Source of the DNA: Methyloligellaceae bacterium
GTDB taxonomy: Bacteria > Pseudomonadota > Alphaproteobacteria > Rhizobiales > CBDHHC01
Assembly (NCBI GenBank): GCA_050633205.1
Contig: JBOEGA010000026.1
Coordinates: 1,412-65,411 of the forward strand
Reading direction: 5' to 3'
Length of the DNA: 64,000 nucleotides
A program made the translations under genes and the position numbers. Of the stretch, positions 9,666 to 10,232 are shown piece after piece (the first letter of the stretch is position 1; each line of letters opens with the position of its first letter). The notes under the pieces were generated by a model. It saw only the letters and a list, made by a program, of their open reading frames with translations, was not told the DNA's origin and did not search any database.

Positions 9666-10232
9666 TTATGAACTTTTTTTGCCCTTAGGCAGATCTTTCT
9701 TTTTCATGGCTTGGTAGGCTTTCGTTAATCCGTTAAGGGAAAATTTAATGTTCACATTTTTCCCGTTTAGTAAGCGAATTCGTCCAAAACCATTCTTTCC
9801 ATTATTGAGAGATTTTACGATTTCTGATGTCAGTAATGCCTGTATCCAGCAGCCGGACTTGTTACAGTTTCTGTATCGAAGTGTGATCACTTTTTCTTTG
9901 TCAATTTGCAGTCCAAAGCCTTTTGGAAGATATACATCCAGTGGTGCTATAATTGTAATGACTGGTTCTTTTTTCTTTTTCACCACAATTTCAGAAATGG
10001 ATATTGTAAGCAGGTTGATTACTTTTTTTCCCTGCTTTGCCTGGGCGATCTGAACGACTTCACAGTTTTCTGCTTTTCTGGATTTTTTGGGAGTTACACA
10101 GCGGTAAAACCAATTGCCAAACTGCTGAATATGGACTTTCGCATCCTGTTTAGATGAAGCTTTCTTTTTTGCAGCCTGAACGGTTGATACCGAAAATATC
10201 AACAATATACTTATAAGAACTAACGAACGCAT
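9666..10232 (-). CDS. IalB (invasion-associated locus B) family periplasmic protein, copy 1, inside the TPS operon
   Basis: It has a signal peptide (LLIFSVSTVQA). IalB-like landmarks are W..RC...C in the N-terminal half, YRNCNKSGCWIQ, and the C-terminal ...NIKFSLNGLTKAY. It is on the same strand as, and tightly spaced between, mini-tpsA and tpsA. Confidence 0.7.
   Translation of the reverse strand: MRSLVLISILLIFSVSTVQAAKKKASSKQDAKVHIQQFGNWFYRCVTPKKSRKAENCEVVQIAQAKQGKKVINLLTISISEIVVKKKKEPVITIIAPLDVYLPKGFGLQIDKEKVITLRYRNCNKSGCWIQALLTSEIVKSLNNGKNGFGRIRLLNGKNVNIKFSLNGLTKAYQAMKKKDLPKGKKSS

Follow-up and report, generated by a model that had tools for sequence, protein, structure and literature searches.

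The IalB proteins (invasion-associated locus B) are named for a role in host-cell invasion, and type V secretion systems are, in textbooks, "self-sufficient". IalB has been cited for 30 years as a virulence factor of Bartonella and Brucella without a mechanism. In Brucella, ialB is found beside batA, which encodes the trimeric autotransporter BatA (BAB1_0070), a relationship described as "to be explored" (PMC7688925). In B. henselae, ialB is located downstream of badA, also a trimeric autotransporter gene (PMC8859334). A survey of Hyphomicrobiales reported 188 IalB genes linked to trimeric autotransporter adhesin (TAA, type Vc) genes; this linkage was judged possibly incidental, IalB being often found alone (bioRxiv 10.64898/2026.01.22.700529). 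For type Vc, an operon or protein association of IalB has been suggested in these reports, without test (PMC7688925, PMC8859334, bioRxiv 10.64898/2026.01.22.700529). Here we analyse a 64-kb stretch of DNA (hereafter, the window) from a contig annotated in NCBI as a Methyloligellaceae metagenome-assembled genome. The window carries two ialB genes, one (IalB-1) within a type Vb, or two-partner secretion (TPS), operon and the other (IalB-2) next to a type Va autotransporter gene. We propose, with a probability of roughly 0.6, that IalB-1 is a dedicated periplasmic accessory subunit, a lineage-specific third component that Alphaproteobacteria added to TPS, and that IalB-2 is its equivalent for the neighbouring autotransporter.

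No paper linking IalB with two-partner secretion, TpsB or filamentous haemagglutinin (FHA), or describing the type Va pairing, was found in the literature. For R. tropici, the genome paper reports 8 IalB homologues together with two TPS systems and one TAA, and draws no connection between them. The Vb pairing, the Va pairing and the clade-specific structure of the association thus appear to be new. The initial annotation of the window regarded a link between IalB and type V secretion as not established. This holds for the Vb and Va pairings, of which we found no report, and must be narrowed for type Vc, where adjacency is already published in the three papers cited above.

The ialB gene of the TPS operon

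A six-frame profile scan of the 64 kb revealed exactly two IalB genes, one TpsB gene, two TPS-domain genes and one autotransporter gene. The TPS operon, the genes of which all lie on the minus strand in the order tpsB, mini-tpsA, ialB and tpsA, has the following features:

11419-13182, minus strand: tpsB, gene 1 of the operon; 587 residues; Omp85-type TPS transporter with ShlB, POTRA_2 and POTRA_3 domains
10304-11398, minus strand: mini-tpsA; 364 residues; signal peptide, partial TPS domain and a segment similar to TpsA residues 1062-1243
9666-10232, minus strand: ialB (IalB-1); 188 residues; PF06776; predicted secreted (periplasmic) beta-sandwich; member of the TPS-linked clade
1920-9602, minus strand: tpsA; 2560 residues; exoprotein of the filamentous haemagglutinin type with a pretoxin-HINT module and a C-terminal tail
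1863-1895: palindromic hairpin with a 14-bp stem, terminator-like, 25 bp 3' of the tpsA stop codon

IalB-1 is separated from tpsA by 63 bp and from mini-tpsA by 71 bp, and its open reading frame (ORF) is preceded by a good Shine-Dalgarno sequence (GGGAG). No terminator-like site was found on the minus strand in the gaps 9603-9665, 10233-10303 and 11399-11418, and the hairpin at 1863-1895 is likely the end of the operon transcript. TpsB matches ShlB (PF03865, E=1.4e-82), POTRA_2 (E=1.3e-22) and POTRA_3 (E=4.9e-14), and thus combines an Omp85-type barrel with two ShlB-type POTRA domains, as expected of a type Vb transporter. Both TPS-domain proteins (2560 and 364 residues) are encoded on the same strand as tpsB, as expected of type Vb TpsA proteins.

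IalB-1 matches the entire PF06776 profile (residues 1-131 of 131) with E=3.6e-29 and 102 bits, against a cut-off of 22.1. Signal peptides of both IalB copies were read from the sequence, on the basis of hydrophobic N-termini and cleavage motifs. In IalB-1, a Sec-type signal peptide would be cleaved after MRSLVLISILLIFSVSTVQA and before AKKK (i.e., after …SVSTVQA). The AlphaFold2 model of IalB-1 (pLDDT 83.5) predicts an immunoglobulin (Ig)-like beta-sandwich, which Foldseek aligned to B. henselae IalB (3dtd) with E=8e-9, a target-normalised TM score of 0.77-0.82 and an rmsd of 2.7-3.3 Å. No NCBIfam model matches either IalB copy.

Two relatives alone, with 48% and 41% identity to IalB-1, came out of a word-indexed search; each is encoded directly upstream of tpsB-tpsA. 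A profile built from these three sequences retrieved 242 proteins, all belonging to PF06776, from Rhizobium, Phyllobacterium, Brucella/Ochrobactrum, Agrobacterium and Paramesorhizobium; among the matches listed (120 of 242), identity ranges from 34 to 52%. The genome scan described below extends this clade to Ensifer, Bartonella and Rhodobacteraceae. An alignment of 27 sequences of the clade features 27 invariant columns, including C45, C57, C123 and C128, and the motifs W-YRC, CEV-Q, YRNCN--GCW-Q and NGQ-N-KFSL-GL. The clade is a small and discrete part of the family: about 60 representatives were counted at E≤1e-30, compared with 3991 representatives (50% identity) of the IalB family at E≤1e-3. 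The type V association is specific to clades and does not extend to the whole family.

A few proteins depart from the single-domain organization. P0149 and P0231 contain two and three IalB domains, respectively, and P0240 falls in the same group. P0156 (716 residues) was considered as a Rosetta-stone fusion of IalB and TpsB and rejected, as it joins residues 1-130 of IalB to a TpsA C-terminus and is a deletion product.

Linkage of ialB to tpsB across genomes

GTDB, sampled at one genome per species, was scanned with the 27-sequence alignment. This yielded 80 loci, the ORFs of which were searched with the TpsB and TPS domains of the window. In 71 loci (89%), ialB is immediately followed by tpsB on the same strand; the median gap is 12 bp, and the two genes overlap in 19 cases. 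In five additional loci tpsB is found elsewhere, divergent from ialB in four and further downstream in one, and another locus carries tpsA only. A TPS gene is absent from two loci, and one locus is uninformative, as it ends less than 1 kb from ialB. Altogether, 77 of the 79 informative loci carry a TPS gene, and a TPS-domain gene is found within the fetched DNA in 67 of 80. Since the clade was delimited by sequence alone, the linkage count is not circular.

Upstream DNA of 5 kb or more is available for 67 loci, among which 50 different contexts were recognized. In 624 kb of upstream flank, tpsB was found only in three divergent, ialB-linked cases (L007, L008 and L084). Public annotations of Rhizobium, Agrobacterium and Sinorhizobium plasmids give the same pairing independently, with an "invasion associated locus B family protein" gene directly preceding one annotated as "ShlB/FhaC/HecB". 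In this clade, ialB thus nearly always opens an ialB-tpsB-(lipoprotein genes)-tpsA operon, and its translation is often coupled to that of tpsB. IalB is confined to Alphaproteobacteria; none of four gammaproteobacterial TPS loci sampled carries it.

Both the closest relatives of IalB-1 and most loci carry ialB before tpsB; the order found in the window, tpsB-mini-tpsA-ialB-tpsA, is therefore a rearranged form of the canonical module. A tandem duplication was considered as the source of the rearrangement, and an IalB remnant was sought upstream of tpsB, at 13183-13752; none was found.

One or two lipoprotein genes are conserved between tpsB and tpsA in the operons of Rhizobium, Brucella, Phyllobacterium and Ensifer, so that the canonical module may be written ialB-tpsB-lipoA-lipoB-tpsA. 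Examples are L014 (12259-13348), L010 (12301-12912) and L054 (12265-13349), along with about 40 other loci; the window has none. The lipoproteins fall into two families without a Pfam counterpart. Proteins of about 150 residues, in which the lipobox is followed by CGGREA…, occur in 24 loci, and proteins of about 200 residues, with a weak, sub-threshold match to DUF6778, occur in 39.

Other arrangements were observed in single loci. IalB genes flank tpsA in Bartonella apihabitans (L062, 9875-20455), where no tpsB is present in the 20-kb locus, and are arranged in tandem in L116 (3505-4655). The Phyllobacterium sophorae (L017) and P. endophyticum (L009) loci have a common upstream context; L009 features a complete ialB-tpsB-tpsA operon and L017 only ialB, which looks like a remnant left after loss of the TPS genes.

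IalB-2 and the type Va autotransporter

The second ialB gene of the window and its neighbour have the following features:

28533-28562: GC-rich hairpin with an 11-bp stem, right after the IalB-2 stop codon
28590-29183, minus strand: IalB-2; 197 residues; PF06776 (E=1.8e-28, 99.8 bits); predicted to be secreted; member of the autotransporter-linked clade
29184-29593: divergent intergenic region of 410 bp between IalB-2 and the autotransporter gene
29594-38998, plus strand: type Va autotransporter; 3134 residues; PF03797 at the C-terminus

IalB-1 and IalB-2 share 27% identity over 99 residues, and are therefore old paralogues rather than products of a recent duplication. IalB-2, which is probably monocistronic, has a signal peptide recognizable by eye, the cleavage motif being AFA before K (VQA before A in IalB-1); neither copy features a lipobox. 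A Pfam scan of the whole autotransporter returned no match, probably because of its Gly-rich repeats, whereas the C-terminal 500 residues, scanned alone, matched PF03797 at residues 214-480 (E=1.3e-33). The N-terminus is hydrophobic, and the protein has the make-up of a classical type Va autotransporter. Dozens of Gly-rich repeats (SHGINAxSxGGxGG…GxIxITNxGxI), for which no Pfam family was matched, constitute the passenger and push the GC skew to +0.3 across 9 kb. A 95-residue reading frame in the intergenic region (orf95, 29256-29543) was considered as a gene, possibly the "second small signal-peptide protein" of the preprint cited above, and discarded, as it has neither a Pfam match nor a homologue in related loci.

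A metagenome scan for IalB-2 relatives added 29 loci, mostly short, for a total of 34. In 15 of these, a homologous autotransporter gene is located within 640 bp of the IalB-2 relative. Of the 14 loci that extend 1 kb or more to either side, 9 have the two genes next to each other. All possible arrangements occur among the 15 loci: the genes diverge in six and converge in four, while ialB precedes the autotransporter gene in four and follows it in one. The outer flanks vary between loci. The IalB-2 relatives beside homologous autotransporters are 33-84% identical to IalB-2, and homologous passengers of 2000-3300 residues recur next to them. For instance, relatives at 72-73% identity are divergent from homologous autotransporters of 3065 to 3343 residues and have different genes on the other side, and a 37%-identical relative is located upstream, on the same strand, of a homologous autotransporter of 2260 residues. 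The neighbour of one relative is only an 83-residue barrel remnant, indicative of autotransporter decay, and loci lacking the autotransporter tend to hold the most divergent relatives. The Va linkage is looser than the Vb linkage. Its maintenance through inversions and changes of the flanks argues for selection on proximity. A distant relative of IalB-2 (29% identity) in L118 (15326-20315) has no adjacent autotransporter; a TpsB-like gene and a protein of >1000 residues are found about 5 kb away.

The initial annotation had placed one IalB paralogue inside a type Vb operon, between mini-tpsA and tpsA, and a second copy divergent from a type Va autotransporter. The Pfam matches and coordinates agree with the first assignment, and the PF06776 and PF03797 matches on opposite strands bear out the second. 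It had also suggested that IalB and type V secretion are functionally linked, an idea to be abandoned if IalB genes showed no enrichment next to type V genes. For the two clades represented in the window, enrichment is very strong for Vb (71/80 next to tpsB) and clear for Va (9/14 next to the autotransporter), and comparative genomics therefore strongly supports the link.

TpsA proteins and flanking DNA

TpsA of the window matches the TPS domain (E=6e-47), Fil_haemagg and Fil_haemagg_2, DUF637 (E=4.9e-23) and PT-HINT (E=8.3e-27), a domain composition that points to a CdiA-like polymorphic toxin. No recognised toxin domain was found in the C-terminal 190 residues. Similarly, the DNA downstream of tpsA (1-1919) holds no recognisable or credible immunity ORF. 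Only short ORFs resembling a tyrosine recombinase (…LHDLRHSFASLAA…) and N-terminal fragments of a transposase are found there, which suggests a decayed mobile element at the edge of the TPS locus. Many TpsA proteins linked to ialB genes of the clade likewise carry toxin tips, such as Cytotoxic, Colicin-DNase/WHH, DUF637 and PT-HINT.

Mini-TpsA matches the TPS domain (PF05860, E=4.4e-29, residues 3-180 of the 252-residue profile; TIGR01901, E=1.1e-18) and, in BLASTP comparisons, aligns with TpsA residues 28-178 (51% identity) and 1062-1243 (36% identity). The protein is an internally deleted TpsA paralogue. It may serve as a decoy or competing substrate, or may be a mere recombination remnant. 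A short TPS-domain protein (579 residues) is also encoded ahead of a full-length tpsA in the closest relative (L001, 9194-10933).

Proposed role of IalB and alternative explanations

In the proposed accessory role, IalB would be made in step with TpsB, exported through Sec and, after cleavage of the signal peptide, would stay in the periplasm as a disulfide-stabilised Ig-like beta-sandwich. There, it could bind the transporter on its periplasmic side, at the POTRA domains of TpsB or at the autotransporter barrel, or else the incoming unfolded passenger. Such a holdase or docking factor would keep the multi-thousand-residue beta-helical passenger export-competent and deliver it to the outer-membrane pore. 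Alternatively, IalB might be an adaptor for the barrel, fixing its position or making it more stable. Indirect evidence on a partner comes from co-divergence. Pairwise distances of IalB correlate with those of TpsB (r=0.94, and 0.77 as a partial r with TpsA held constant), and the partial correlation with the TPS domain is -0.21 when TpsB is controlled for. These values hint at TpsB as the likely partner.

The proposal may be extended, more tentatively and at somewhat less than even odds, to the family. In the extended form, IalB proteins would largely be cognate periplasmic partners of type V systems, with separate clades for Va, Vb and Vc. The Bartonella invasion phenotype would arise indirectly, through the biogenesis or display of adhesins, and the canonical rhizobial TPS machine would have four to five components (IalB, TpsB, TpsA and one or two lipoproteins).

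Several observations weigh against an accessory role. IalB is not obligatory for TPS: in a small reverse sample of nine plasmid TPS loci, it is present in three of five alphaproteobacterial loci and in none of four gammaproteobacterial ones (including cdiBAI of E. coli EC93), so that two of the former and all four of the latter lack it. Most IalB paralogues have no type V link, and R. tropici has 8 IalB genes and only 3 type V systems. One member of the family, RgsG, is an essential polar-growth protein, which makes the family functionally heterogeneous. In the window itself, IalB-2 is divergent from its autotransporter and shares no operon with it. Foldseek yielded no functional analogue of IalB-1 other than IalB itself. 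Co-divergence is weak evidence, as the same pattern would result if recombination had broken the operon between tpsB and tpsA. Finally, the 2026 preprint regards the IalB-TAA association as possibly incidental. This objection is answered by the clade-specific nature of the linkage, which is almost absolute in one clade and which statistics computed over the large IalB family would dilute.

Adjacency could in principle reflect hitch-hiking in mobile islands or inherited synteny, with no functional link. The TPS locus of the window abuts degraded integrase and transposase fragments, many loci reside on Rhizobium plasmids, and the incidental reading of the TAA association (bioRxiv 10.64898/2026.01.22.700529) points the same way. 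However, the adjacency in 71 of 80 loci, with a median gap of 12 bp and 50 upstream contexts, is maintained at 28-50% protein identity in several families and two orders. It also outlasts rearrangement, as seen in the order of the window, in the divergent loci (L006-L008 and L084) and in the four orientations of IalB-2 relatives. A linkage so tight and independent of context makes pure hitch-hiking very unlikely. A role in self-protection, in which IalB would act like an immunity protein and guard the periplasm or envelope of the producer from its own or a sibling toxin, has a similarly slim chance of being correct. Many linked TpsA proteins are CdiA-like toxins, and in the window tpsA is not followed by an obvious immunity gene. 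Immunity proteins, however, co-vary with the toxin domain and are encoded directly downstream of it, whereas IalB is encoded upstream of tpsB and is conserved across unrelated toxin tips, which contradicts an immunity role. Moreover, IalB relatives are also found beside non-toxin autotransporters and TAAs.

Two further explanations grant IalB a function in type V systems outside translocation. IalB might itself get to the outer membrane or the cell surface and assist the adhesin or toxin there, for example by binding a receptor on the target cell or promoting its invasion; a shared task at the target, rather than secretion, would then link the genes. An Ig-like sandwich is a fold typical of binding modules, and Brucella IalB figures in papers whose titles concern outer-membrane vesicles. 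We consider this explanation improbable. Surface binding partners usually diversify, but conservation in the clade is high and many alignment columns are invariant from one family to another, despite the variable C-termini of the linked TpsA proteins (Cytotoxic, Colicin-DNase/WHH and PT-HINT). In addition, IalB has neither a TPS domain nor a barrel for crossing the outer membrane, and is tightly coupled with tpsB rather than with tpsA. Unlikely as well, although deserving somewhat more credit, is the notion that IalB is a periplasmic adaptor of the Rhizobiales polar-growth and Tol-Pal machinery, which would recruit or anchor TpsB, autotransporter or TAA barrels at the growth pole or at the peptidoglycan with no role in translocation. 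If this were true, type V proteins would be displayed stably and at the pole. Brucella adhesins are reported to be unipolar. The divergence of IalB parallels that of the membrane component TpsB, not that of the passenger TPS domain, and the association covers Va, Vb and Vc systems, which have a barrel in common and differ in their passengers. Furthermore, the growing pole of S. meliloti has an essential periplasmic protein with an IalB domain, RgsG, whose complex interacts with Tol-Pal (PMC7327166). RgsG, however, comes from a different group of IalB paralogues. In addition, two TPS-linked loci (L081 and L082) are from Rhodobacteraceae, which are not known for polar growth of the Rhizobiales type.

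Comparison with known systems

The coupling of ialB to tpsB in most Rhizobiales TPS operons would give IalB a concrete job, which the Va and TAA pairings widen to type V secretion. If the accessory role is correct, type V secretion in Alphaproteobacteria requires an extra periplasmic component, and work on the BadA and BatA adhesins, as well as on contact-dependent competition in rhizobia, would be redirected.

IalB-1 and Bartonella IalB (3dtd) belong to the same Pfam family, and have the same fold, a signal peptide and an alphaproteobacterial distribution. In contrast, identity across the structural alignment is only about 19%, and the sequence match to 3dtd is marginal (E=0.72). The clade of IalB-1 is set apart by its motifs and is found inside TPS operons, whereas the classical Bartonella ialB is described beside ialA. 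RgsG of S. meliloti is likewise a periplasmic IalB-domain protein of Rhizobiales, but is an essential housekeeping paralogue with no reported type V link. Closer in context are the IalB proteins of Brucella, B. henselae and other Hyphomicrobiales, the genes of which, like the two copies of the window, are located next to a type V adhesin gene. Their partners, however, are of type Vc, in contrast to the Vb and Va partners of the window, and the Vb linkage (89% immediate adjacency) is far tighter than that of the TAA cases.

The window locus resembles the CdiB/CdiA systems of contact-dependent inhibition (CDI) in combining a TpsB with a giant TpsA that carries a TPS domain, FHA repeats, DUF637, a pretoxin module and a variable C-terminus. 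TpsA proteins of the relatives have Cytotoxic and Colicin-DNase/WHH tips. The window differs from CdiB/CdiA in that the pretoxin module is PT-HINT rather than VENN, no recognisable immunity gene is located downstream, and an extra ialB gene is present. Operons of the relatives differ from CdiB/CdiA also in their two additional lipoprotein genes.

Small accessories are known in several type V systems, such as the BcpO lipoprotein of Burkholderia (bcpAIOB), SadB and TpgA of TAAs, VirK of autotransporters, and the HMW1C and EtpC glycosyltransferases of three-gene TPS loci. The SadB-type lipoprotein and TpgA are cited as TAA accessories in a previous report (PMC7688925). IalB resembles all of these in being a small extra protein encoded at the locus and specific to its system, in contrast to the general chaperones SurA, Skp and DegP. 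It differs from them in fold and family, as IalB appears to be a soluble beta-sandwich with a signal peptide and is neither a lipoprotein nor a cytoplasmic glycosyltransferase. The lipoprotein genes located between tpsB and tpsA in the relatives, in turn, recall BcpO of Burkholderia.

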